A stretch of 64,000 bases of DNA, from assembly GCA_024654445.1 (NCBI GenBank), contig JANLHP010000017.1:33009-97008 (forward strand), in the 5' to 3' direction. Below the pieces are notes generated by a model, which was not told where the DNA came from, made no database searches, and saw nothing but the letters and a program-made list of their open reading frames with translations. The translations under genes and the position numbers were made by a program. Below are positions 14,647 through 61,620 of this stretch, piece after piece (the stretch's first letter is position 1; each line of letters starts with the position of its first letter). The DNA is from Candidatus Curtissbacteria bacterium. GTDB taxonomy: Bacteria > Patescibacteriota > Microgenomatia > Curtissbacterales > GWA2-41-24.

Positions 14647-14736
14647 GTCATTCTGGAGACCGAAGGTCGATAGAATCTAAACGATTGAGATCCTATTCGT
14701 AGAAAAGCTCTGCTTATCGGTCGTTTCACTCCCTCC
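14647..14736. repeat. Palindromic intergenic repeat family R2, copy A (GTCATTCTGGAG...CGATAGAATCTA...CTCCAGGATGAC)
   Basis: Terminal inverted repeats gtcattctggag / ctccaggatgac; shared core with copies at 17146, 24477, 51897, 56146. Confidence 0.8.
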
Positions 14737-14748
14737 AGGATGACAGTT

Positions 14749-17145: not shown

Positions 17146-17208
17146 GTCATTCTGGAGACTGAAGGTCGATAGAATCTATTTGACCCTATCGCTTCGCTCC
17201 AGGGTGAC
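17146..17208. repeat. R2 palindromic repeat, copy B
   Basis: gtcattctggagactgaaggtcgatagaatcta...cgctccagggtgacgg. Confidence 0.8.
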
Positions 17209-17215
17209 GGTAATA

Positions 17216-24097: not shown

Positions 24098-25114
24098 CTA
24101 TTTGAAGTATATATCAGCTTTGTGTGTGATCGCAATTTTTTCATCTAGCTTATTTTCCCAACCTTTTTGACTGATATCGAAGAGTTCGATTGATTTAAAC
24201 TTATTAAACCAGGTTTTTTGTCGGCGGATAAGGCGGTGTAGGTCTCCTTTTGCAAGGTCGACTGATTCTTCTTTCGACGTTTTCCCTAAAATATAGTCTG
24301 CAAGACGCCTGTATTCCAAACCAAGCGAGTTAATCCATTCAGGGCTAATCCCGCCTTTTATTAGACTTTGAATTTCTTCAATCATTCCATGCTCAAGACG
24401 AGCCTTGAAGGATGCGTCGGCTCTTTTAAAAAGAAAATTATTAGGCGCGGTGAGACCGATGATGAGCACTTTTTCTGTCATCCTGGAGCGTAGTGGAACG
24501 GAGCGATGGGATCTAGATTCTATCGTGGTCGATGCCACTCCAGAATGACGACTTTTGCTTGGCGTCTCTATGGATACCTCTATAGCGCGGATGAGCCGGC
24601 GTGGATTTTTTCTGTCGGATTCGTTCATGGACTTTGCCTTTTGAGGATTTAGTTTTCCTAACTTTAGATAAAGCTCCTGCCTTGATAACTTTTCCAGTTT
24701 TGCGCGTAGTTTTTGGTCAGCTTTTATTCCTAGCGTGTCCATACCGTCCACAAGTGCTTTGATATAAAAACCTGTTCCCCCAACAACAATTGGCATTTTT
24801 TTCAGTTCAGTGATCTGAATTACTGAACTATTGGCGAATTTTAAAAAGTCTGCGACCGTGAATTGTTTGCCAGGTTCTATTAGATCGAAACCGCGGATTT
24901 TTACTCCGTCAACGATCCAATAACCGTTGTGTTTTTCAACCTTAGATTTAAAGCTTACTTTACCGGTTCCGATATCTAGACCTTTATAAACCTGTCGGGA
25001 GTCGGCAGAGATTAATTCACCGTTTGCACATTTGGCTAGTTTTATTCCAAGATCAGTTTTGCCGGTTGCCGTCGGACCATATAGTACCAACATCGTAGAT
25101 TTGCCAGTTTTCAT
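24098..25114 (-). CDS. miaA: tRNA dimethylallyltransferase; carries an in-frame 74-nt insertion of the R2 palindromic repeat
   Basis: P-loop GPTATGKT, SADSRQVYKGLDIGTGK; repeat at 24477-24550 translated as RHSGVASTTIESRSHRSVPLRSRMT between RAIEVSIETPSKS and EKVLIIGLTAPNN. Confidence 0.85.
   Translation of the reverse strand: MKTGKSTMLVLYGPTATGKTDLGIKLAKCANGELISADSRQVYKGLDIGTGKVSFKSKVEKHNGYWIVDGVKIRGFDLIEPGKQFTVADFLKFANSSVIQITELKKMPIVVGGTGFYIKALVDGMDTLGIKADQKLRAKLEKLSRQELYLKLGKLNPQKAKSMNESDRKNPRRLIRAIEVSIETPSKSRHSGVASTTIESRSHRSVPLRSRMTEKVLIIGLTAPNNFLFKRADASFKARLEHGMIEEIQSLIKGGISPEWINSLGLEYRRLADYILGKTSKEESVDLAKGDLHRLIRRQKTWFNKFKSIELFDISQKGWENKLDEKIAITHKADIYFK
24477..24550. repeat. R2 palindromic repeat, copy C (inverted relative to A/B), inside the miaA CDS in frame
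   Basis: gtcatcctggagcg...tagattctatcg...ctccagaatgacg. Confidence 0.8.
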
Positions 25115-28033: not shown

Positions 28034-28129
28034 TTTAAGGAGACAACCTACGGTTTTCTCCTTAATATTCCTCTTTCCCTAAGAGGACAATTTTGAACTA
28101 GCAAAAGCTAGATTCAAAATTAATTTTAG
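28034..28129. repeat. Intergenic structured repeat family R1, copy 1 (between convergent gene ends)
   Basis: tttaaggagacaacctacggttttctccttaatattcctctttccctaagaggacaattttgaactagcaaaagctagattcaaaattaattttag; 6 copies in window. Confidence 0.85.
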
Positions 28130-37573: not shown

Positions 37574-37680
37574 ATTTAAGGGACAACCTACGGCCTGCCT
37601 GTCGGCAGACAGGTTTTCCCTTAATATTCCTTTTCCTTTAATGGACAAAATTAAACTGGCTAAGCCAGATTTAATTTTAG
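37574..37680. repeat. R1 repeat, copy 2 (with extra internal hairpin ctgtcggcagacag)
   Basis: tttaagggacaacctacggcctgcctgtcggcagacaggttttcccttaatattccttttcctttaatggacaaaattaaactggctaagccagatttaattttag. Confidence 0.85.
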
Positions 37681-37706
37681 ATTTTATGATAGCTCTTTCC
37701 ATAATT

Positions 37707-39229: not shown

Positions 39230-39234
39230 ACACT

Positions 39235-39328
39235 TTAAAGGGACACCTACGGTTTCCCTTTAATATTTCCTTTCTCTTTTAGTGGACGATTTTGTACTGG
39301 CAAAGCCAGATCCAAAATTAATTTTATA
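39235..39328. repeat. R1 repeat, copy 3 (between infA and rpmJ)
   Basis: tttaaagggacacctacggtttccctttaatatttcctttctcttttagtggacgattttgtactggcaaagccagatccaaaattaatttta. Confidence 0.8.
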
Positions 39329-43507: not shown

Positions 43508-44050
43508 TTATTGCGCAGTTTTGACTGCTTTGCCTGCCTTTCTTCTTACAATCTCACCGGCGTATTTGATACCTTTCCCTTTGTAAGGCTCAGGCGGTCT
43601 TACTCTTCTGATTTTAGCGGCTACTTCACCGACCAGAACTTTATCGGCGCCGCTTATTATTATTTTGTTTTCTTTGGCTTCGATATTTATACCTTTGATT
43701 TGTTCAAAGGTCACGGGATGCGAATATCCAATATTCAATACCAGACTCTCGCCTTGTTTTGCTGCGCGGTAACCAACACCAACGAGTTCCAAAACTTTTT
43801 CGTGCCCATCTGTTACACCCTTTACCATATTTGCAATAACGCTTCTGGTTAACCCGTGAAGAGATTTAGCAAATTTTGTTTCTGAAAGGCGATTTACGTC
43901 TACTTTCCCGTCATTCACATCGACTTTTATTTCTGGACGAATTTGGAATGACAATTCACCCTTTGGGCCCACTACGTTAATTTGAGAATCCATCACGGAA
44001 ACCGTAACGCCTTGTGGGATCGGTACTGGTTGTTTTCCTATCTTTGACAT
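43508..44050 (-). CDS. rplF: 50S ribosomal protein L6
   Basis: MSKIGKQPVPIPQGVTV. Confidence 0.95.
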   Translation of the reverse strand: MSKIGKQPVPIPQGVTVSVMDSQINVVGPKGELSFQIRPEIKVDVNDGKVDVNRLSETKFAKSLHGLTRSVIANMVKGVTDGHEKVLELVGVGYRAAKQGESLVLNIGYSHPVTFEQIKGINIEAKENKIIISGADKVLVGEVAAKIRRVRPPEPYKGKGIKYAGEIVRRKAGKAVKTAQ

Positions 44051-44110
44051 AATATGCTCCTTTCAGTCGCAAGAATCTCAAAGTTCAAAGTGCAAAGTTC
44101 AAAATTGAGG
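44051..44110. promoter_or_regulatory. Conserved leader motif R3 upstream of rplF (minus-strand sense TTTGAACTTTGCACTTTGAACTTTGAG...TGCGACTGAAAGGAGCA-ATG)
   Basis: Same 45-60 nt motif with SD GAAAGGAG recurs at 44547..44607 and 46880..46945. Confidence 0.6.
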
Positions 44111-44170
44111 AAGCCAAAAGATTTTTGGCTTTTTATTTTGATATTTGATATTTGATATTTGATATTTTTG
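44111..44170. repeat. Hairpin (gccaaaagatttttggc) followed by microsatellite (TTTGATA)x4-5
   Basis: gccaaaagatttttggctttttattttgatatttgatatttgatatttgatattttt. Confidence 0.8.
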
Positions 44171-44171
44171 G

Positions 44172-44546
44172 TTACCATACAATACATATCACTTCTCCCC
44201 CTAATTTTTTAGACCTTGCATCGCTTCCCGTCATAACACCTTGAGGTGTAGAAACAATTGTTATGCCTCTTCCGCCTTTTATAGACTTAATATCTTTGCT
44301 TTTTGTGTAAACTCTAAGACCTAATTTAGAGACTTTTTTGACTTCTTTTAACTTTGGTTTATTGTTTTCGTATAAGAGACCTACTTCGAGTTTAGTGTCT
44401 GTTTTTTGAACGCTAGCGATAAATTTACTTTTTTCTAAAACTTTAGCAATCTCAAATTTGAATTTTGAATGCGGCATAGAAACGGTTTGTTTCCGGGCCA
44501 TATAACCATTTTTTATCGCAACTAACATGTCTGCTATTGGATCCAC
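44172..44546 (-). CDS. rpsH: 30S ribosomal protein S8
   Basis: MDPIADMLVAIKNG. Confidence 0.95.
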   Translation of the reverse strand: MDPIADMLVAIKNGYMARKQTVSMPHSKFKFEIAKVLEKSKFIASVQKTDTKLEVGLLYENNKPKLKEVKKVSKLGLRVYTKSKDIKSIKGGRGITIVSTPQGVMTGSDARSKKLGGEVICIVW

Positions 44547-44607
44547 TGTTTTGCTCCTTTCTGTCGCAAAAATTTTAAATTTAAAATTTCAAATTTAAAG
44601 TTAATTA
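44547..44607. promoter_or_regulatory. R3 leader motif upstream of rpsH
   Basis: minus-sense ...TTTAAATTTGAAATTTTAAATTTAAAATTTTTGCGACAGAAAGGAGCAAAACA-ATG. Confidence 0.55.
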
Positions 44608-44793
44608 TTACCATGATGATTTTTTCACTCCTGGCACTTCTCCTTTATGAACAAGTTCCCTGAAACAAAGCCTGCACATACCAAATTTTCTTAGATAAGC
44701 CCTTGGCCTGCCGCATAGACGGCAACGGTTTCTGTGCCTTACTTCAAATTTCTGCTTTTTATCGTTTTTAATAACTTTAGATTTTCTTGCCAT
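44608..44793 (-). CDS. rpsN: 30S ribosomal protein S14 type Z (Zn-binding)
   Basis: [23 protein letters not shown]; 61 aa. Confidence 0.95.
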
Positions 44794-46471: not shown

Positions 46472-46879
46472 TTATCCTTTTGTTACTATTTTTGTCTTAA
46501 GTGGTAACTTATGAGCTGCAAGTCTCATTGCCTCCATGGCAACTTTTTCCTCTACTGCTCCCATTTCAAAAATGATTACTCCAGGTCTTACAACTGCAAC
46601 GTATTGGTCAACGTCACCTTTACCAGAACCCATACGGGTTTCTGCTGGCTTTTTGGTAACAGGTTTGTCTGGAAAAATCCTAATCCAAATACGCCCACCT
46701 CTTTTGGTATAGTGAGTCATTGCGCGCCTTGCCGCTTCAATTTGCCTGGCAGTCACCCAACCCGCCGCCTGACTTTTGAGTCCATATGAACCAAAGGCGA
46801 GGACGCTGCCTCTTATCGAGACGCCACCCATTTTCCCTCTAAATTGTTTCCTAAATTTTGCTCTTTTTGGCGCTAACAT
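46472..46879 (-). CDS. rplP: 50S ribosomal protein L16
   Basis: [17 protein letters not shown]. Confidence 0.95.
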
Positions 46880-46945
46880 GGTTTGCTCCTTTCAGTCGCA
46901 GAAAGTTTAAAGTTCAAAGTGCAAAGTTCAAAGTTAAGGAGGTTA
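46880..46945. promoter_or_regulatory. R3 leader motif upstream of rplP; followed (46990..47030) by tttgatttttgacttttgatttttgatg short tandem repeats
   Basis: minus-sense TTTGAACTTTGCACTTTGAACTTTAAACTTTCTGCGACTGAAAGGAGCAAACC-ATG. Confidence 0.6.
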
Positions 46946-47675: not shown

Positions 47676-48054
47676 TTTCCCCTCCTTCAATAACTTTTTC
47701 TTTTGGCTCTGACTTTGCTTTTGGCTGACCTTCAAGAACAATCCTTATGTGGCTTGTCCGTTTAAGAATCGGGTGAGCTCTGCCTCTTGAGACTGCTCTG
47801 TATCTTTTAAACACGGGTCCTTTTGTCACTATTATTGACTTGAACGATAATGTGCCTTCATCTAAATTAAAATTATTCTTGGCGTTTGCTATTGCCGATG
47901 CAATTACCTTCTTTACGGGTTTTGCCGCAGATTTGTCAACAAAATCCAGGACTGCAATGCCGTCAGCCGGTTTTACTTTTTTGATTTGATCAGTAACAAT
48001 GCTGACTTTTTGCGGTGATATTCTTATGTTTTTAGCTGTTGCAATTACTTCCAT
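47659..48054 (-). CDS. rplV: 50S ribosomal protein L22 (with C-terminal extension)
   Basis: L22 core; 131 aa. Confidence 0.9.
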   Translation of the reverse strand: MEVIATAKNIRISPQKVSIVTDQIKKVKPADGIAVLDFVDKSAAKPVKKVIASAIANAKNNFNLDEGTLSFKSIIVTKGPVFKRYRAVSRGRAHPILKRTSHIRIVLEGQPKAKSEPKEKVIEGGENGTKS

Positions 48055-48075
48055 TTGTAACCTCCGGTTACTTAC

Positions 48076-48118
48076 TAATTTGAACTAATTTTGCTAATTT
48101 ATACGAATATTTGTTCAT
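48076..48118. promoter_or_regulatory. Conserved leader motif R4 upstream of rplV (TAATTTGAACTAATTTTGCTAATTTATACGAATATTTGTTCAT; SD ACCGGAGGTT)
   Basis: Near-identical 43-nt element at 56953..56996 upstream of rpsG. Confidence 0.6.
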
Positions 48119-48443: not shown

Positions 48444-48539
48444 CTTTAAGGGCAAACCTAACGGTTTTCCCTTAATATTCCCTTTCCCTTTATTGGACAA
48501 ATTTGGACTGGCAAACCCAGATCCAAATTTTAATTTTAG
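48444..48539. repeat. R1 repeat, copy 4 (between rplB and rpsS)
   Basis: ctttaagggcaaacctaacggttttcccttaatattccctttccctttattggacaaatttggactggcaaacccagatccaaattttaattttag. Confidence 0.85.
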
Positions 48540-51896: not shown

Positions 51897-51953
51897 GTCA
51901 TCCTGAACTCGATTCAGGATCCAGATTCTATCGCTTCGCTCCAGAATGACAGT
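51897..51953. repeat. R2 palindromic repeat, copy D (tuf-rpsJ spacer)
   Basis: gtcatcctgaactcgattcaggatccagattctatcgcttcgctccagaatgacag. Confidence 0.8.
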
Positions 51954-52191: not shown

Positions 52192-53373
52192 TTAGGCAAC
52201 TATCTTGCTTACAACGCCGGCACCAACAGTGTGGCCGCCTTCACGAATTGCGAATCTAAGGCCCTCGTCCATAGCAACTGGAGCAATTAACTTGACCTTC
52301 ATTTTGACGTTGTCGCCAGGCATAACCATTTCGGTTCCTTCAGGAAGTGTGGCTTCACCTGTGACGTCTGTGGTTCTAATGTAGAATTGTGGCCTGTAAC
52401 CAGTGAAAAATGGTGTGTGCCTTCCGCCTTCTTCTTTAGTTAAGATGTAGACTTCTGCTTCGAATTCGGTGTGAGGTGTAGCGGTACCCGGTTTTGCCAA
52501 AACTTGTCCTCTTTCAACATCGTCTTTTTCAACGCCTCGAAGAAGAACGCCGACGTTGTCACCGGCTTGACCTTCATCGAGTTGTTTTCGGAACATTTCG
52601 ACACCTGTAACGACAGTTTTCTTGGTTGGTCTGATTCCAACAATTTCGATTTCGTCGTTAACTTTTACGATTCCCCGCTCTACTCTTCCTGTAACAACTG
52701 TTCCTCGGCCTTTAATAGAAAAGACGTCTTCTACAGGCATAATAAATGGTTTGTCGAGGTCTCTTACTGGTGTTGGAATCTTTTCGTCGACTGCTGCCAT
52801 CAGATCTTCGATCGCTTTTTCCGATTCTGCATCGCCTTCGAGGGCCTTTTTTGCGGATCCGCGGATGATTGTTGCGTTTTTACCGTCGAATTCGTATTTG
52901 TCCAAAAGCTCCCTGACTTCTAGTTCGACCAAGTCGAGCAGTTCAGGGTCGTCTACCATGTCGACTTTGTTGAGGAAAACGACGATCGCTGGAACATTGA
53001 CCTGTTTGGCAAGAAGTACATGCTCTCGTGTTTGAGGCATAGGGCCGTCTGGTGCGCTAACAACTAGAATCGCACCATCCATTTGTGCTGCACCTGTAAT
53101 CATGTTTTTGATGTAATCAGCGTGACCCGGGGCGTCGATGTGGGCGTAGTGCCTTTTTTCTGTTTCGTATTCTACGTGGGTAATATTAATAGTAATTCCA
53201 CGTTGTCGCTCTTCTGGAGCGCTGTCGATCTGCTCAAAGCTTCGGGCTTCGGCGTGACCTTTTTTGGCAAGAACAGTGGTAATCGCACTTGTAAGCGTGG
53301 TTTTACCGTGGTCGACGTGACCAATTGTTCCAATATTTACGTGCGGTTTAGTTCTTTCAAATTTTTCAGCCAT
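52192..53373 (-). CDS. tuf: Elongation factor Tu
   Basis: [19 protein letters not shown]; 393 aa. Confidence 0.99.
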
Positions 53374-53478: not shown

Positions 53479-55626
53479 TTAACTTTCTTTGCTTTCGCCT
53501 CTATTTTTAGCAACTATTTTATCTGCTATATTACTTGGTACTTCTTCGTAGTGGGATGGTTCCATATAAGCGGACCCTCGACCTTGAGTCATTGAGCGGA
53601 GAGTTGTGACGTAGCCGGACATTTCTGCAAGAGGAACGATGGCGTTGATGATGACGCTGTTGCCATGGTGGTCAGAACCGTGAATTTGAGCCCGTTTTGC
53701 GGAAAGATCACCAATGACATCGCCCATAAATTCTTCGGGGATTGTTACTTCAACTTTCATAATTGGCTCGATTAGCACGAGTTCGGCGTTTTTTGCGGCC
53801 GCTTCTAAGGCCATGCTGCCCGCGATTTTAAAGGCGATGTCACTTGAATCAACGTCGTGGAAACTACCGTCGTAGACTGCTGCTTTTACGTCAACAAGCG
53901 GATAGCCTGCAAGAACTCCCATGTCGAGTTTTTCCTTTACACCTTTTTCGACTGAGCCGATAAATTCCTGAGGAATCGCACCACCTTTAATTTCGGAAAC
54001 AAATTGAGAACCTTCACCTCTTGGTTGCGGCTCGACCCTGATGAAACAATGTCCGTATTGACCGCGGCCGCCGGATTGTTTGATGTATTTGCCTTCGCCC
54101 TTACCGGTTTGCTTGATCGTTTCGCGGTAAGCAACTTGTGGGCTACCGATATTTGCAGAAACTTGGAATTCCCTTTTCATCCTGTCTACCAAAATTTCTA
54201 GGTGGAGTTCACCCATACCTGAAATAATAGTTTGGCCTGTTTCCGGATCTCCTTTTATACGGAATGTTGGATCTTCTTCGGAAAGTCTGCCCAGAGCATA
54301 ACCGAGTTTTTCCTGGTCGGCTTTAGTTGTCGGTTCGATAGCAAGAGAAATAACAGGTTCTGGGAAAGAAATATTTTCGAGAACAATAGGGGCTGCGGGG
54401 TCGCAAAGAGTGTCACCAGTTACAGTATTTTTGAGCCCGACGACGGCGACGATTTCACCGGCGTATGATTCCGGGATTTCTTCCCTTGTGTTTGCGTGCA
54501 TCAAAAGAATTCTTCCGATTCGCTCTGTATTCTTTTTAGTGGAGTTCATAACGGAAGCACCGGCCTTCATAACTCCAGAATAAACCCGAACGTAAGTAAT
54601 TTTACCGACATGGGGGTCGATTTGGATTTTGAAAGCAATTCCACAAAATGGAGAATCTTTATCTTGTTTTCTTTTTTCCGCCTCTCCCGTTTTTGGATTG
54701 ATACCTTCGATTTCCGGAATATCCATAGGGGACGGCAAGTATTCAACAACTGCGTCAAGAAGTGGCTGGACGCCTTTGTTTCTAAGGCTAGATCCTGCCA
54801 GAACAGGGACAATTTTGTAATCGATTACTGCTTTTCTTAAAACCTTTTTGAGTTCTTCGACAGATAATTCCTCGCCTGCGAGATATTTCTCGAGTAGTGT
54901 GTCGTCACCTTCGGCAATTTTTTCAATAAGTTCGTGTCTGTATTTTTCGACGTTTTCTTTTTCGCTATCTGGAATCGGTACTTCTGTAAATTTCATTCCG
55001 GATTTATCGCCTTCATCCCAGGTGTATGCTTTTTGAGTTAAAAGATCGATTATGCCTTTAAAATCATTTTCTTTCCCAAGCGGAAGATTATAAGGATAAG
55101 CAGGGGCTCCAAGTTTATCACGAATGGACTTTAAGGTAGCGTAGTAGTCTGCGCCAAGTTTATCCATTTTGTTAACAAAACATACTCTTGGAACTTTGTA
55201 TTTGTCAGCTTGTCTCCAAACCGTTTCAGATTGCGACTGAACTCCTTCTTCGGCATCCAAGACTGTAACGCCACCGTCCAAAACGCGAAGCGATCTTTCG
55301 ACTTCTGCGGTGAAGTCAACGTGTCCTGGCGTGTCGATAATATTGATTCTAGTTTCTACGTCTTTATAAGGACCGGACTTTGGAGTCCAAAAAGTAGTGA
55401 CAGCTGCAGAAACTATGGTAATTCCTCTTTCTCTTTCCTGCTCCATCCAATCTGTTACCGTTGTTCCTTCATCGATGTTGCCGAGTTTGTAAGATCTACC
55501 TGTGTAATAGAGAATTCGCTCTGTAGTCGTCGTTTTGCCCGCGTCGATGTGGGCAATAATGCCAATGTTCCTTATTCTATCCAGCGGATACAACCTATTT
55601 GTTTTTTCCTGTTGAGCTTGGGCCAT
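53479..55626 (-). CDS. fusA: Elongation factor G
   Basis: AHIDAGKTT, DTPGHVDF, NKMD; 715 aa. Confidence 0.99.
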   Translation of the reverse strand: MAQAQQEKTNRLYPLDRIRNIGIIAHIDAGKTTTTERILYYTGRSYKLGNIDEGTTVTDWMEQERERGITIVSAAVTTFWTPKSGPYKDVETRINIIDTPGHVDFTAEVERSLRVLDGGVTVLDAEEGVQSQSETVWRQADKYKVPRVCFVNKMDKLGADYYATLKSIRDKLGAPAYPYNLPLGKENDFKGIIDLLTQKAYTWDEGDKSGMKFTEVPIPDSEKENVEKYRHELIEKIAEGDDTLLEKYLAGEELSVEELKKVLRKAVIDYKIVPVLAGSSLRNKGVQPLLDAVVEYLPSPMDIPEIEGINPKTGEAEKRKQDKDSPFCGIAFKIQIDPHVGKITYVRVYSGVMKAGASVMNSTKKNTERIGRILLMHANTREEIPESYAGEIVAVVGLKNTVTGDTLCDPAAPIVLENISFPEPVISLAIEPTTKADQEKLGYALGRLSEEDPTFRIKGDPETGQTIISGMGELHLEILVDRMKREFQVSANIGSPQVAYRETIKQTGKGEGKYIKQSGGRGQYGHCFIRVEPQPRGEGSQFVSEIKGGAIPQEFIGSVEKGVKEKLDMGVLAGYPLVDVKAAVYDGSFHDVDSSDIAFKIAGSMALEAAAKNAELVLIEPIMKVEVTIPEEFMGDVIGDLSAKRAQIHGSDHHGNSVIINAIVPLAEMSGYVTTLRSMTQGRGSAYMEPSHYEEVPSNIADKIVAKNRGESKES

Positions 55627-55717
55627 ATTTTTATTGTGTCAATGTGTCAAAGTATCATGTATCACTGTTTATGCTTTGACACTTTAAGTCTTAGACGCTT
55701 TGATTCATTTTAATCTC

Positions 55718-55993
55718 TTACTTGGAAAGCTTTTCTTTGGTGGAGTTAGCTTGACCGATTCCAATTGGAGGACGTTCTATCTTTCTTATTTCTGCTTTAA
55801 TTTCGGCAACCATGGCCCGAAGCACAGAAACTTCTTCGTCCGCGAGTTCCCAGGCGGCGTTTTCGTTCCAAGCAGCACCAGAATCTTGATAAGCTTCTCC
55901 ATAACGAGTCAGAGCATCTTTGAGTTTGACCTCCTCGAGCTCTTTTAGCTTTGTCCTAAGTTGTTTTAACTTCTGTCCTTTTGATAATGCCAT
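55718..55993 (-). CDS. Hypothetical small coiled-coil protein inserted between rpsG and fusA (start taken at MALSKGQKLK; track ORF extends into R1 repeat)
   Basis: 91 aa, Lys/Glu heptad-like N-half, acidic Trp-containing middle (AAWNENAAWELADEE); no recognisable family. Confidence 0.45.
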   Translation of the reverse strand: MALSKGQKLKQLRTKLKELEEVKLKDALTRYGEAYQDSGAAWNENAAWELADEEVSVLRAMVAEIKAEIRKIERPPIGIGQANSTKEKLSK

Positions 55994-56001
55994 GTTTCTG
56001 A

Positions 56002-56134
56002 TTTTAAGGGACAACCTAATAAGCAAAGCTTGCGGTCCTCGTCCTTCGGACTGCGGGCCTAACGGTTTTCCCTTAATATTCCCTTTCCCTTAATGGAGAA
56101 ATTTAAACTAGCAAAGCTAGATTTAAATTTCGAT
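56002..56134. repeat. R1 repeat, copy 5 (with extra internal UUCG-tetraloop hairpin gtccttcggac)
   Basis: ttttaagggacaacctaataagcaaagcttgcggtcctcgtccttcggactgcgggcctaacggttttcccttaatattccctttcccttaatggagaaatttaaactagcaaagctagatttaaattt. Confidence 0.85.
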
Positions 56135-56145
56135 TGTATTGCACT

Positions 56146-56199
56146 GTCATTCTGAATGAAATGAAGAATCTAGATCCTTCGCTGCGCTCAGGATGACAT
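56146..56199. repeat. R2 palindromic repeat, copy E
   Basis: gtcattctgaatgaaatgaagaatctagatccttcgctgcgctcaggatgacat. Confidence 0.75.
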
Positions 56200-56319
56200 T
56201 TATACGCAAATTTCATTTAAGCAGAAAATGCTTCCCTTATACAAGGGTCATTTCGGCTTGTTCCGCGACATCCGTTTTGAGCAAAATCCAAGAGGATAAC
56301 GGAGGATTCTTAAGCGGGA

Positions 56320-56349
56320 ATTATATGCTAGACATTTGGTAAAAGTCAA
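56320..56349 (-). promoter_or_regulatory. Near-consensus sigma70 promoter (minus strand): -35 TTGACT, 18-nt spacer, -10 TATAAT; drives small ORF-fusA-tuf with R2+R1 copies in the 5' UTR
   Basis: revcomp of 56318-56350 = aTTGACTtttaccaaatgtctagcaTATAATtc. Confidence 0.6.
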
Positions 56350-56437
56350 TTTGTTAATTTACCATCTGAAATGGGAAAAAGCTTTTAGATAGTTACTACG
56401 GACCGAAAGGTCCGGAACTATCGCAAGGCGGAACACA

Positions 56438-56932
56438 TTACCACCGGAAATGTGAGAACGCCTTATTCGCCTCTGCCATGCGATGCATTTCTTCCCTTTT
56501 GGCGACAGCTTTACCTGCACCTTGAGCTGCTTCTTGAAGTTCGGCCACGATTTTCGCGGCAATCGGTGGTAATTTGCCTATTTTTTCGACGTCTTTTGGA
56601 GACCTGCTTCTAGCTGCATCTACCAACCAAGTTAAGGCAAGAGATTGCCTTCTTGGTCCACGTACTTCAATAGGCACCATGTAAGAGGCACCGCCAACTC
56701 TTCTTGGTTTAACTTCCATTTTAGGGGTGATATTTTCGAGGGCTCTTTCGAATAAAACGATTGGGTCTTCGCCTTTTCTCTCTATTTCTGCAAAAGCTCC
56801 GTAAACCGCTTTTTCGGCGATGGTTTTTTTACCGTCTTTCATTACCTTGTTGATGAATTTGGTCACAAGAGGGCTATTGTAGATTGGGTCTGCGCCCACT
56901 TGCCTTTTTATGATTTTTCCGGTTCTAGGCAT
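56438..56932 (-). CDS. rpsG: 30S ribosomal protein S7
   Basis: MPRTGKIIKRQ...ANKAFSHFRW; TAA stop then hairpin CCGGACCUUUCGGUCCG. Confidence 0.97.
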   Translation of the reverse strand: MPRTGKIIKRQVGADPIYNSPLVTKFINKVMKDGKKTIAEKAVYGAFAEIERKGEDPIVLFERALENITPKMEVKPRRVGGASYMVPIEVRGPRRQSLALTWLVDAARSRSPKDVEKIGKLPPIAAKIVAELQEAAQGAGKAVAKREEMHRMAEANKAFSHFRW

Positions 56933-56952
56933 AGAAACCTCCGGTTTCTTGC

Positions 56953-56996
56953 AAATTTGAACTAATTTTGACTAATTTAATCGAATATTCGTTCAT
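56953..56996. promoter_or_regulatory. R4 leader motif upstream of rpsG
   Basis: aatttgaactaattttgactaatttaatcgaatattcgttcat; SD ccggaggtt. Confidence 0.6.
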
Positions 56997-57025: not shown

Positions 57026-57505
57026 TTAGCCTTCGGCTGGCGGAGCTGCTGCTGCAGATGCTCCGGCTGTCGTGGCTGCTTGAGCGCCGCTTGTCGCGCC
57101 AGATTTCTTAGTTCCATAAAGGGATCTTCCTTGTTTTCTGTTGTTAACGCCAGTTGTGTCGTATTTACCGCGAATAATGTGATATTTAACGCCGGGTAAA
57201 TCTTTGACACGTCCGCCTCTGACTAAAACTACAGAGTGCTCTGCAAGTTCGTGTCCGATTCCCGGAATGTAAGCTGTAATTTCTTGTTTGTTGGAAAGCC
57301 TTACACGTGCGACTTTTCGAAGAGCAGAATTTGGTTTTTTAGGAGTCATTGTTTTTACCACGACACAAACTCCCCTCTTTTGTCCGGAAGGATAGCTTGT
57401 GTATCTATTAGTTCTAGAGTTGAAGGCACGTCTCAAAGCGGTTGCCCTAATGCGCTTTATCTTAGACGTCCTGCCTTTTCTAATTAATTGATTTACTGTT
57501 GGCAT
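57026..57505 (-). CDS. rpsL: 30S ribosomal protein S12 with ~35-aa Ala/Gly/Thr-rich C-terminal tail
   Basis: [12 protein letters not shown]...[10 protein letters not shown]; 159 aa vs ~124 typical. Confidence 0.95.
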
Positions 57506-57825: not shown

Positions 57826-60800
57826 TTAAGACTCGGTGCTTATTTTTGCCCTATCAGGGCTCGTAGGAATTAACCTACCAATTATGACGTTTTCCTTTAG
57901 ACCAAGAAGCGGATCGTACTTGCCTTCGCTAGCTGCGTCTGTAAGGATTCTAGTTGTTTCCTGGAAGGATGCAGCAGACAAGAAGCTTTCTGTGTAAAGG
58001 GCAGCTCTCGTGATACCAAGGATAACAACTTGGGCTGTCGCTGGCTCTCCGCCTTCTGCCAAGACTTTTCCGTTTTCGCCTTCGAATCGGTTCTTGTCGA
58101 CTAACTCGCCCGGTAGAAGAGTCGTGTCGCCGGATGTTTCGATTCTGACTTTTTCGCTCATCTTTCTGACGATTGCCTCAAAATGCTTGTCGTTAATTGC
58201 AACACCCTGGCTTTCGTACACTTGTTGAGCACCCGCAATTATGTACTTCTGAGCTGCGCGCAAGCCGGAAATTGCCAGAACCTCTTTGATGTCGAGATAT
58301 CCAGATGAAAGAGGAGTACCGGCCGCAATTAAGTCTCCGTCTGCGACTAAAAGGTCGACTGCGGATGGAATAAAGTATTCTTTTTCTTGGGCTGGTTTGA
58401 TTCTGGTGCTTTTAATTGTGACGGCGTAACCTTCTTCGTTCTCTTCGACTTTAACTTTGCCGGCAATTTCTGCAAGCTGAGCGACAAATTTTGGAACTCT
58501 TGCTTCAAAGAGTTCTTCGACCCTTGGAAGACCCTGAGTAATATCGAGACCTACGATACCACCAGTGTGGAACGTTCTCATAGTAAGCTGCGTTCCAGGT
58601 TCTCCGATACTCTGGGCGGCAATTACGCCAACTGGTGTTCCAATTTTAACTAACTCTCTGGTTACCAAATCTCTTCCGTAACACAATGCGCAGAGGCCAT
58701 GCTTTGCCTGGCAAGTAAGAACGGACCTTACAAGTACTTCTTCTATGCCGGCCTTTTCGATTTCTGCGACTTTTTCTTCGGTGATTTCTTCGCCTGCTTT
58801 TACAATCGCATTTTTGCCCTTTGATGAAAGTACATCTTTGGCAGCGTATCTTCCGTGAATCCTTGAAGCAAGGGGCGCTTGTCTTTTGTCACGTTTGGAG
58901 AATTCTATTCCTTCTGTCGTACCGCAGTCTTCAAGTCTAATTATCGCATCGTGAGCAACGTCAACAAGCCTTCGAGTTAGATATCCAGATTCCGCTGTCT
59001 TAATAGCCCGATCGGCTAGTCCCTTCCTTGCGCCTCGGGCACTTGTGAAGTACTCGAATACGGAAAGACCTTCACGGAAGTTGGATTTAACTGGCAGTGG
59101 AACGATTTGACCTGATGGGTCTGTAACGAGTCCTCGAATTGCTGAAAGCTGTTTAATCTGCTCTGCGGTTGCCCTTGAACCGCCGGAATCCGAGATAATC
59201 TTGATGGCGTTTGTCCCGGGAAGATTTCTCCATGTCAGGTCTGCAAGTTCGTTGGTTGTTGTAAGCCATACTTCCTGGGATAGGCGTCTTTCTTCTTCTT
59301 TTGTGATAAGACCCATCTTGAAGTTCTTTTCGATCGCTTCGACTTCTTTTTCGGCTTTGGCAATAATATTCGGTTTGTCTCCTACAATCTGACAGTCAAA
59401 AACAGAAACCGAAAGACCTGAGAACGTTGCGCCTTCGAACCCTAAGCTCTTAAGTCTGTCGATAATTCCAAGAACTTCTTCTTCGGGGAGTGTGTCGATA
59501 CTCTTGTTGATGATGCCTTTGATTGCAGCAGCTGTTATGGGTTCGTTTATGAACCGGAGTGACTCCGGAAGTTGAATGTTAAAAATAACTCTGCCCGCCG
59601 TTGTGTCAATGATTTCTTTTCCGAGTTTGATTTTAATTCTTTGTCTTATGCCAACCCTTCCGGTCGCGACCCCAATTACAACTTCTTCTTCGTCGCGGAA
59701 GATGCCTTCGTAAGGTTCTTTCCCCTCGTCGATAGAAGTTAAGTAGTAAACACCTAGCGCCATTTCTTTATTTGGCAAAGTAATTGGAGAGCCGTCTGCG
59801 GGTCTAAGCAAGTTTTTAGAAGCAACCATCAGGCTTATCGCTTCTGCTTGAGACGCTTCAGAAAGAGGAACATGAACCGCCATTTGGTCTCCGTCGAAGT
59901 CGGCGTTAAACCCGGCACATATACAAGGGTGAATTCTGATCGCGTCGCCTTCTATTAGAATCGGGTAGAAAGCTTGGATACCAAGGCGGTGGAGAGTCGG
60001 GGCTCTATTTAAAAGAACTGGATGATTTTTAGTAATTTCTTCGAGGATATCCCAAATTTCTCCGCTTCTTCTCTCTAAAAAGTGTTTCGCGCTTTTGACA
60101 TTCGGGGCATGACCTCTTGATATGATTTCGCGCAGTACAAATGGCTTAAACATTTCGAGCGCCATTTCTTTAGGAATACCTGTTTGGTGCAGGTCGAGTT
60201 CCGGTCCGACGACGATTACGGACCTACCGGAGTAATCAACACGTTTTCCAAGAAGGTTTTGTCTGAATCTTCCCTGTTTTCCTCGAAGCATGTCAGAAAG
60301 TGATCTTAGTTCTTGTGATGCCCGAGTTGTTTTAACTTTTTGAGAATCGATGAGAGCATCGACTGCTTCTTGGAGCATTCTTTTTTCGTTTCTCAGAATG
60401 ATCTCCGGAGCCCCAAGCTCTATTAACTTTTTGAGTCGGTTATTTCTGTTGATGACTCTTCTGTAAAGATCGTTAAGGTCCGAAGTTGCGAACCTTCCAC
60501 CTGAAAGCTGAACCATAGGGCGAAGATCTGGCGGCAGAACAGGGAGAGTTTTTATAATCATCCAGGTTGGGGAAATTTGCGCCTTTCGCATTCCTTCAAC
60601 AACCCTCAATCTTTTTGCGGCTTTGATGTATTTCTGGCTGCTGGCGGTCGTTAATTCTTTTCTAAGATTAGCCGCAAGTTGTGCAAGGTCTATTTTCTCA
60701 AGAACAGCCAGGACGGATTCAGCACCCATTCCAACTTTTAAGAACTCGTGCGCTTCGTAGTCTGCAATTTTTTGATATTCGTCTTCAGAAATTAAATCGA

Positions 60801-61518
60801 GAGGTTTGACAGAGTTGACCATACTGGTAATGCTCTTGTAGATTTCCTCGAGTCTGGAAACTTCCTTGGCGTTTTCGTCCCGGAGCATTGCCTGTCTTTG
60901 GCGCGTGATCAGCTGCATTTCTTCGATTTTAAGTTCTGATTGTTCTTTTGCTGTCGATTTACCTTTGACTTCCGCGACCTCTTTTTTGCCTTCTTTTTCC
61001 TGCTCTTCTAAGTTTTTCTTTAAAAGTACTTGTTGTTCTTTTCTCTTTGCTTCCAGATCCTGTTCTAAGCGTTTTATGATTTCTGCTCTTTTATCTTCGT
61101 CGAGGTCGATGACGATGTATGACGCGAAATAAATTACAGCGTCTAAGCTCCTTGGGGAAACATCAAGAAGAAGCCCGAGCTTCGACGGGCTGCCTTTGAA
61201 AAACCAGTTGTGAACAACCGGAGCAGCAAGTGTAATGTGGCCCATTCTTTCACGACGGACTCTAGATTGGGTTACTTCAACGCCACATTTGTCACAAATT
61301 ATTCCGCGGTACCTGATCCTTTTGTATTTACCGCAGTAACACTCCCAGTCTTTTGTGGGGCCGAAAATGCGTTCGTCGAAAAGTCCGTCTTTTTCCGGCT
61401 TCAGCGTTCTGTAGTTAATGGTTTCAGGTTTTGTGACCTCACCAAAAGACCACGTCTTGATGTCGTCTGCTGACGCGAGTGTTAATTTTAAGGCTTCAAA
61501 ATCGATTAGTTCGTTCAT
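57826..61518 (-). CDS. rpoC: DNA-directed RNA polymerase subunit beta'
   Basis: Zn-binding CxxC..CxxC N-terminus, NADFDGD catalytic motif; 1230 aa. Confidence 0.99.
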   Translation of the reverse strand: MNELIDFEALKLTLASADDIKTWSFGEVTKPETINYRTLKPEKDGLFDERIFGPTKDWECYCGKYKRIRYRGIICDKCGVEVTQSRVRRERMGHITLAAPVVHNWFFKGSPSKLGLLLDVSPRSLDAVIYFASYIVIDLDEDKRAEIIKRLEQDLEAKRKEQQVLLKKNLEEQEKEGKKEVAEVKGKSTAKEQSELKIEEMQLITRQRQAMLRDENAKEVSRLEEIYKSITSMVNSVKPLDLISEDEYQKIADYEAHEFLKVGMGAESVLAVLEKIDLAQLAANLRKELTTASSQKYIKAAKRLRVVEGMRKAQISPTWMIIKTLPVLPPDLRPMVQLSGGRFATSDLNDLYRRVINRNNRLKKLIELGAPEIILRNEKRMLQEAVDALIDSQKVKTTRASQELRSLSDMLRGKQGRFRQNLLGKRVDYSGRSVIVVGPELDLHQTGIPKEMALEMFKPFVLREIISRGHAPNVKSAKHFLERRSGEIWDILEEITKNHPVLLNRAPTLHRLGIQAFYPILIEGDAIRIHPCICAGFNADFDGDQMAVHVPLSEASQAEAISLMVASKNLLRPADGSPITLPNKEMALGVYYLTSIDEGKEPYEGIFRDEEEVVIGVATGRVGIRQRIKIKLGKEIIDTTAGRVIFNIQLPESLRFINEPITAAAIKGIINKSIDTLPEEEVLGIIDRLKSLGFEGATFSGLSVSVFDCQIVGDKPNIIAKAEKEVEAIEKNFKMGLITKEEERRLSQEVWLTTTNELADLTWRNLPGTNAIKIISDSGGSRATAEQIKQLSAIRGLVTDPSGQIVPLPVKSNFREGLSVFEYFTSARGARKGLADRAIKTAESGYLTRRLVDVAHDAIIRLEDCGTTEGIEFSKRDKRQAPLASRIHGRYAAKDVLSSKGKNAIVKAGEEITEEKVAEIEKAGIEEVLVRSVLTCQAKHGLCALCYGRDLVTRELVKIGTPVGVIAAQSIGEPGTQLTMRTFHTGGIVGLDITQGLPRVEELFEARVPKFVAQLAEIAGKVKVEENEEGYAVTIKSTRIKPAQEKEYFIPSAVDLLVADGDLIAAGTPLSSGYLDIKEVLAISGLRAAQKYIIAGAQQVYESQGVAINDKHFEAIVRKMSEKVRIETSGDTTLLPGELVDKNRFEGENGKVLAEGGEPATAQVVILGITRAALYTESFLSAASFQETTRILTDAASEGKYDPLLGLKENVIIGRLIPTSPDRAKISTES

Positions 61519-61524
61519 TTTTGA

Positions 61525-61620
61525 CTTTAAGGAGACAACCTACGATTTTCTCCTTAATATTCCTCTTTCCCTAAAAAGATAATTTTAAACTGGCAAATCT
61601 AGATTTAAAATTCATTTTAG
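61525..61620. repeat. R1 repeat, copy 6 (between rpoB and rpoC)
   Basis: tttaaggagacaacctacgattttctccttaatattcctctttccctaaaaagataattttaaactggcaaatctagatttaaaattcattttag. Confidence 0.85.

Follow-up and report, generated by a model that had tools for sequence, protein, structure and literature searches.

The 91-aa ORF situated between rpsG and fusA in this DNA (termed gene X) is, as judged from sequence comparison, an uncharacterised member of the Gre superfamily that comprises the coiled-coil finger only and has become a constant part of the str operon in a CPR clade. We favour, at a probability of about 0.5, the reading that X, which holds a fixed place upstream of fusA and is most likely co-transcribed with fusA and tuf, occupies or modulates the RNAP secondary channel without stimulating cleavage. 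To our knowledge, every described bacterial secondary-channel factor (GreA/B, Gfh1, Rnk, DksA, TraR) joins a coiled coil to a globular anchor. A finger-only Gre homologue would bear on how little of a Gre factor suffices to act on RNAP, on whether streamlined CPR bacteria regulate transcription elongation differently, and on whether transcription factor dosage is coupled to elongation-factor synthesis. Positions of the features are collected in Table 1; "the window" is the whole stretch of DNA that was analysed (64 kb).

Table 1. Features of the rpoB to tuf region of the window, in the order in which the minus-strand genes are read.
Feature	Position	Strand	Remarks
rpoB	61621-	minus	top of cluster
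rpoC (beta')	57826-61518	minus	
rpsL	57026-57505	minus	
rpsG (ribosomal protein S7)	56438..56932	minus	neighbour upstream of X
rpsG-fusA gap			811 nt; holds gene X
Palindromic insert	56386-56437	minus	52 nt; directly after rpsG
Second, non-coding rpsG tail	56359-56385	minus	last 8 codons + stop; follows the 52-nt palindromic insert
Promoter-like site P1	56320..56349	minus	TTGACT-18-TATAAT; -35 at 56349-56344, -10 at 56325-56320; 11/12 matches
GC-rich discriminator/start region	56311..56319	minus	TCCCGCTTA; conserved, directly after the P1 -10
Block P2	56215..56244	minus	TTGTAT-18-(TGc)TTAAAT; conserved across species
R2, palindromic REP/REPIN-like element	56146..56197	none	GTCATCCTGAGCGCAGCGAAGGATC / GATTCTTCATTTCATTCAGAATGAC; in X leader
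R1, structured leader element	~56003..56133	minus	hairpin 1, purine-rich SD-like tract, hairpin 3
GC-rich hairpin in loop of R1 hairpin 3	56015..56057	plus	43 nt; TTAGG direct repeat flanks
Gene X, stand-alone Gre N-terminal coiled coil ("mini-Gre")	55718..55993	minus	91 aa; ATG 55993, stop 55718-55720
X-fusA spacer	55627..55717	minus	91 nt; hairpin GTGTCAAAG...CTTTGACAC at 55682-55644
fusA (EF-G)	53479..55626	minus	invariant partner downstream of X
tuf (EF-Tu)	52192..53373	minus	

An earlier note on this DNA had described a novel small coiled-coil gene, with its own promoter, inserted between rpsG and fusA. The ORF was recovered with exactly the sequence quoted there, and its protein is identical to NCBI NUV69_02780; a longer version beginning at TTG 56026 (102 aa) was rejected, since the homologues begin with MALSK or MAxxK. 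Among 5.8 billion proteins searched, 268 homologues were found; the 120 matches listed of the 268 are about 80-120 aa long (72-124 aa when the relatives listed for P0137, below, are counted in), and where the source name is informative it is Candidatus Curtissbacteria or "Patescibacteria group". Residues 8-73 of X are nearly invariant and the C-terminal tail is free to vary. When X was compared with 28 orthologues, pN was about 0.14 against a saturated pS of about 0.75: X is a genuine gene under strong purifying selection, and it is conserved at least as well as S7 (identity across loci of 62-80% for X vs 56-76% for S7). The coiled-coil gene of the earlier note is thereby real, although "novel" is not the word for it, the family being already deposited as hypothetical proteins and its relatives bearing the automatic UniRef name "GreA/GreB N-terminal domain-containing protein". 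The family nonetheless appears to be uncharacterised, and no paper on stand-alone Gre N-terminal domains was found in the literature.

The word "inserted" did not survive either. In a collection holding one genome for each of 185,579 species, 27 X loci were found, all in Curtissbacteria-type MAGs (some of the records being mislabelled), and X lies immediately 5' of fusA in 29/29 distinct loci. In one of these (L026), rpsG, rpsL and rpoC are absent within the 4 kb upstream and X-fusA-tuf is intact; in several relatives, the X-fusA spacer is 2-3 nt or the two genes overlap. Because X is kept beside fusA in all of these arrangements, it belongs with fusA, and is neither a recent insertion nor a cassette. 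All through Curtissbacteria, and in Patescibacteria lineages further removed, the gene is a constant part of the operon and is inherited vertically.

What kind of protein X encodes was judged from profiles, single-sequence comparisons being weak. X alone matched TIGR01462 at E = 0.0029 and PF03449 at E = 0.025 (15.2 bits, below the Pfam cut-off of 24.5), in both cases over residues 7-72. A profile of the X family, searched against 1.84 billion representatives, retrieved just 21 clusters, all of 54-120 aa, and the distant ones carry the canonical Gre tip GD(L/W)xEN (for example GDLSENAGY and GDWHENAEY); PF03449 was matched by 9/20 X-family members, with a best E of 5.6e-12. The top PDB match of the broad X profile was E. 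coli GreA (1grj), residues 12-70, in register (E = 1.6e-4); the narrow X-family profile returned coiled-coil noise only from the PDB sequences. Alignment by hhalign of the Curtissbacteria X family with a Gre NTD profile, made of E. coli GreA/GreB, the NTD of Thermus Gre-C1 (a GreA/Gfh1 chimera) and the canonical-tipped mini proteins, gave a probability of 98.7% and E = 3.1e-16; the comparison was decisive only with this profile, as against the single E. coli GreA sequence it was weak (E = 0.049). AF2 models X (pLDDT 72) as a helical hairpin, in which residues 5-37 and 46-73 form the two helices (33 + 28 residues), 38-45 a predicted tip loop and 74-91 a variable tail that is predicted to be disordered. 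Foldseek of X against the PDB gave nothing significant, Gfh1 standing at rank 4 with E = 1.8.

The same slot between rpsG and fusA is occupied in distant relatives (P0126, P0127, P0132 and P0137) by genes with a canonical or near-canonical tip, that of P0137 being fully canonical, and some sister lineages have two tandem mini-Gre paralogues there; other relatives, of the DGWHDN type, are located elsewhere. When P0137 was used as query, 7 small proteins were returned and full-length GreA was not among them. Taken together, the profile comparison and the canonical-tipped relatives in the same slot lead us to regard X as a stand-alone homologue of the GreA/GreB N-terminal coiled coil, the finger which Gre factors insert into the RNAP secondary channel: its homology to the Gre N-terminal domain is well supported, and it is likely orthologous to the canonical-tipped mini-Gre genes of the same locus.

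The C-terminal globular domain (PF01272) was found neither in the 91 aa of X, nor in the listed homologues, nor in the 21 representative clusters. At the tip, the equivalent of Asp41 is Ala in 111, Ser in 5, Asn in 3 and Gly in 1 of the 120 listed homologues, and is acidic in none of them; the equivalent of Glu44 is present in 120/120, Glu44-Asn45 reads EN in 119/120, and the aromatic residue at position 48 is invariant among the listed homologues. X thus retains the RNA-contacting motif (E-N-A-x-aromatic) and has neither the catalytic Asp nor the RNAP anchor. In M. tuberculosis Gre, the D43N change (the Asp41 position) abolished stimulation of cleavage, Asn47 and Tyr50 were implicated in contact with backtracked RNA, and the CTD mutation S127E abolished activity, in the authors' view probably because the interaction with RNAP was lost (PMC3132773). 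In all the secondary-channel factors that have been described, it is the CTD that binds RNAP (PMC4598747).

Since the C-terminal anchor is missing and the tip Asp is replaced by Ala, with Glu-Asn-Ala-x-aromatic retained, we infer a non-cleaving modulator. The X finger would enter the RNAP secondary channel without stimulating cleavage, and would act there as an abundant, low-affinity occupant or modulator, similar in effect to Gfh1 or DksA; co-transcription with fusA and tuf would guarantee a high level of X, tied to that of the elongation factors. RNAP binding, lack of cleavage activity and physiological role are here proposed from homology and gene context. Genes for transcription factors within ribosomal or RNAP operons have precedents in nusG and nusA. 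Two points weigh against the channel reading: we know of no docking of a Gre finger on RNAP at useful affinity without the C-terminal domain, and the tightest genomic link of X is with fusA, not with rpoBC.

This link with fusA would fit a place of X in translation instead. The earlier note had suggested an unknown translation-associated factor; X being homologous to the GreA/GreB N-terminal domain, such a role could have arisen only as a secondary exaptation, by which a Gre-derived coiled coil came to bind EF-G, S7 or the ribosome. The invariant adjacency of X and fusA would fit this, as would the 2-3 nt spacers and overlaps, which imply translational coupling, and the persistence of X beside fusA where rpsG lies elsewhere (L026); the hairpin surface is invariant at almost all of its residues, suggesting an extensive interface with protein or RNA. 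However, the sole detectable homology is to a domain of transcription factors, the gene cluster also includes rpoB and rpoC, and transcription factor genes are common in ribosomal-protein operons. The retained E-N-A-x-aromatic motif is moreover the one by which Gre contacts RNA (PMC3132773). We regard exaptation to translation as unlikely.

An improbable alternative is that X remains an active cleavage factor, a GreA of which a streamlined genome has kept the catalytic finger alone. In vitro, the N-terminal domain of GreA by itself reportedly still induces cleavage weakly (Koulich et al. 1998), high co-expression with EF-G and EF-Tu could offset a low affinity, and E44, N45 and aromatic 48 are conserved. 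A search with E. coli GreA (phmmer, six-frame ORFs) that covered the 64-kb window and the DNA flanking 30+ loci found no canonical GreA, which is weak support in that it concerns these regions only. Against this reading, an Asp essential in M. tuberculosis Gre has no acidic equivalent in any of the 120 listed homologues, and sister lineages with the tip SDSWHQS at the same locus have lost the Glu as well. GreA is, besides, kept even in very small genomes, which also speaks against its having been pared down here.

The tandem paralogues of some sister lineages suggest another arrangement, in which X would form an oligomeric coiled coil (a homo- or hetero-dimeric four-helix bundle) and act outside the RNAP channel, for example as a regulator of fusA/tuf; the tandem copies could then make a hetero-oligomeric bundle rather than channel-inserting monomers. 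X has no nucleic-acid-binding motif, however, and the invariant motif of the tip loop argues for a functional tip rather than the core of a bundle, and we rate this arrangement as distinctly improbable.

Upstream of X, the near-consensus sigma70 promoter of the earlier note was confirmed as the promoter-like site P1 (Table 1) and is conserved in other species. Sigma70-type sites with at least 11/12 matches number 6 in the 64-kb window, vs 1.09 +/- 0.95 in first-order Markov simulation, and 6/6 are intergenic; the organism therefore evidently uses such promoters, and P1 is credible. The 15-mer TATAATyCCCGCTTA, which joins the -10 to the discriminator, is unique in the window; if up to 2 mismatches are allowed, it is found ahead of X in 15/30 spacers (window included), although synonymous sites are saturated. 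The second block, P2, is kept across species as TTGnnA / 17-18 nt / TGnTnnAAT; it may be a promoter of the extended -10 type, or else a motif of the leader that has been conserved. P2 stands 7-61 nt from the ATG in relatives and about 213-214 nt from it in the window, because R2 and R1 have been inserted there; the X leader measures about 320 nt from P1, and contains one R2 and one R1 copy as the earlier note had it. In three loci the rpsG-X gap is 5-10 nt, too small for a promoter, so that in this clade X is also reached by read-through from rpsG. The X-fusA spacer (55627..55717) contains no terminator-like site. X, fusA and tuf most likely share one or more conserved internal sigma-70-type promoters, in agreement with the transcription of fusA and tuf from the X promoter proposed earlier, and tuf probably forms one transcription unit with X and fusA.

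The hairpin reported after rpsG was also found, and proved to be two (-35.7 kcal/mol, z = -4.2). As an intrinsic terminator it was rejected, there being no U-tract; it is part of a palindromic insert lying between duplicated rpsG tails. The copied tail differs from the functional one at 6 positions, 6/6 of them synonymous.

The spacer between rpsG and X is an insertion hot spot for REP-like elements, a transposase gene and other genes. Depending on the locus, rpsG and X are separated by as little as 5 nt or as much as about 1.7 kb, and the longer spacers can hold a 486-aa ORF without Pfam match, a patatin-like ORF or an IS200-like Y1 transposase; the last, a RAYT-type Y1_Tnp gene, was seen in related genomes (L010, L027 and L028), and no RAYT gene was found in the 64-kb window. 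A tblastn search of the rpsG-X spacer for a decayed second mini-Gre copy gave none. R2 is a palindromic doublet, GTCATYCTG...CAGRATGAC, with 5 copies in the window, where its arms match 9 times vs 0.85 expected. As a short palindromic doublet with several intergenic copies it is like REP/REPIN elements, for which the Y1 transposase gene seen in related genomes would be at most a putative partner.

R1, of about 95 nt, is present in 6 copies in the window and 9 in other Curtissbacteria loci, and two of its helices are backed by compensatory changes in 14/24 pairs. In 12/15 copies the end of R1 is 4-10 nt away from the start codon of the gene that follows (rpsL, rpsG, rpoC, rpsS, rpmJ or X), with no SD between the two in those copies; in the case of X the distance to the ATG is 9 nt, and a separate SD is lacking. 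The last R1 hairpin (about 31 nt) is immediately preceded on its 5' side by a conserved purine-rich tract, GGGAAAGRGGAATA. By analogy, we infer that R1 may serve as a hairpin-bridged ribosome-binding site. Such "split" sites are those of phage T4 genes 38 and 25, in which, as would be so in R1, folding of the hairpin gives a normal SD-ATG spacing; R1 is unlike them in that it is repeated, shows covariation, extends over about 95 nt and precedes many different genes. This points to R1 as a structured leader, so far undescribed, for genes of the ribosome and of RNAP. No Rfam 15 model reached its gathering threshold anywhere in the window, and none matched at E <= 1 in 55600-56500. Inserts of the family to which the GC-rich hairpin nested in the R1 loop belongs also lie between rpsG-tail copies at two other loci (L018 and L030).

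R1 and R2 are absent from the orthologous leaders, including that of the closest available relative (82% identity), and the repeats are therefore separate, later insertions. They are lineage-specific additions to a leader that is normally short, and R1 would now supply the translation-initiation region of X in this genome. The X locus is a clean natural example of repeats remodelling the 5' leader of an essential operon. The remaining suggestion of the earlier note, that the repeats and the ORF form a mobile cassette, draws on the hot-spot character of the spacer, and along with the notion of a chance ORF it can be dismissed, given the purifying selection, the 268 homologues and the fixed position of X, the orthologues that lack R1 and R2, and the copies of R1 and R2 found elsewhere without X.

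More tentatively, and with considerable doubt, X and its relatives may represent a previously unrecognised, free-standing "Gre-finger" class, established in the str operon of a CPR clade and working without an anchoring domain, which either plugs or tunes the RNAP channel in proportion to the synthesis of EF-G/EF-Tu or has moved to the ribosome/EF-G, with R1 as a portable initiation module. In the former case, control of transcription elongation would be directly and genetically coupled to translation capacity; R1, for its part, would be a structured translation-initiation module exchanged between ribosomal and RNAP genes.

Among known systems, the HelD arm is a Gre-like coiled coil that occupies the secondary channel without a Gre C-terminal domain (PMC7749165); the arm belongs to a large helicase-like protein which supplies the anchoring, whereas X is free-standing. 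GreA and GreB (PF03449 + PF01272) are the closest in sequence, their coiled coil being homologous to X, of the same length (about 70 residues) and in register over GreA 12-70, with the motif E44-N45-A46-x-aromatic48 in common; X differs from them in its want of a C-terminal RNAP-binding domain, in Ala for the essential tip Asp41, in a 2-residue insertion before the tip, and in the position of its gene in the str operon. Thermus Gfh1 and M. tuberculosis Rv3788 are Gre homologues that have no cleavage activity and are competitors for the secondary channel, and the likely action of X, as occupancy or inhibition, may be likened to theirs; failure of a Gre-type coiled coil to stimulate cleavage has been shown for Gfh1/Rv3788 and is predicted for X. 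These two proteins keep the C-terminal domain and acidic tips, whereas X has neither the domain nor the Asp. DksA and TraR are likewise coiled-coil binders of the secondary channel which modulate and do not cleave, as is proposed for X, but they are unrelated to X in sequence and have a zinc-binding globular anchor and a DxxDxA tip. TraR, at about 70 aa, is able to work in the secondary channel.

The spacer between rpsG and X, the 91-aa stand-alone Gre N-terminal coiled-coil ("mini-Gre") gene that precedes fusA, is an insertion hot spot. Three related genomes carry within it a Y1 transposase gene of the IS200-like/RAYT type (Pfam Y1_Tnp, E = 2.8e-12), and in one lineage (L003/L004) a 486-aa ORF without a Pfam match has been inserted between the two genes. 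Some more distant lineages hold two diverged mini-Gre paralogues in tandem in the rpsG-fusA interval, whose tips belong to the WE(V/E)(D/N)P and SDSWHQSASFE types.

The leader of X contains one copy of R1, a structured element of about 95 nt with covariation and no match in Rfam. R1 has its 3' end 4-10 nt upstream of start codons, namely those of rpoC, rpsS, rpmJ and X here and of rpsL/rpsG in other genomes, the set of R1-bearing genes varying from genome to genome; no separate Shine-Dalgarno sequence was found between the end of R1 and these start codons. R1 may be a portable, hairpin-bridged RBS. Within the loop of its last hairpin, the copy ahead of X holds a GC-rich hairpin of 43 nt, flanked on both sides by a TTAGG direct repeat; a loop insertion is also present in the R1 copy at 37575-37684. 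fusA lacks a recognisable Shine-Dalgarno sequence (ACAATAAAAATATG); the 91-nt X-fusA spacer contains a hairpin with a 9-bp stem and two TTGACA motifs.

The window contains other repeats too. R2 is palindromic (arms GTCATYCTG.../...CAGRATGAC) and occurs five times; the copy at 24477-24549 falls within a long ORF listed at 24098-25114. A 35-nt repeat immediately precedes both rpsG and the gene that starts at 48054, and its small hairpin (GAAACCGGAGGTTTC) presents GGAGG in the loop, 3 nt upstream of ATG. A further intergenic family, CTCCTTTCAGTCGCA...AAAGTTCAAAGTGCAAAGTTCAAA, lies inside the ribosomal-protein gene cluster.

Coordinates of repeats, insertions and paralogues (window positions, or locus coordinates for L-numbered related loci)
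Feature	Location	Positions
rpsG tail with its extra copy	window	56359-56464
Extra rpsG-tail copies	L007, L009, L010, L018, L023, L025, L027, L030, L031	
R1	window	28034-28129, 37575-37684, 39234-39326, 48445-48538, 56003-56133, 61526-61620
R1	L003, L008, L010, L014, L025, L027, L028	
43-nt hairpin in R1	window	56015-56057
R2	window	14647-14744, 17146-17210, 24477-24549, 51897-51950, 56146-56197
35-nt repeat	window	56936-56970, 48059-48093
CTCCTTTCAGTCGCA...AAAGTTCAAAGTGCAAAGTTCAAA family	window	44047-44111, 44544-44608, 46876-46940
X-fusA spacer	window	55627-55717
Spacer hairpin	window	55682-55644
Y1 transposase (minus strand)	L010	3097-3759
Y1 transposase (minus strand)	L027	3098-3760
Y1 transposase (minus strand)	L028	3154-3822
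486-aa ORF	L003/L004	4402-5862
Tandem mini-Gre	L032	1257-1508, 1462-1731
Tandem mini-Gre	L036	514-738, 738-950

At 10 of the 28 loci the end of rpsG (its last 8 codons and stop, KAF[AS]HFRW*) is duplicated downstream of the gene as one or two non-coding copies, with palindromic inserts of 30-100 nt lying between the copies; the inserts in L018 and L030 belong to the same family as the 43-nt hairpin nested in R1, in the opposite orientation. The differences between copies are synonymous, because 11 of the 13 extra copies encode the same peptide despite changes at 4-8 of 27 nt. These copies resemble att-site-type scars, as if left by an element carrying its own rpsG end.
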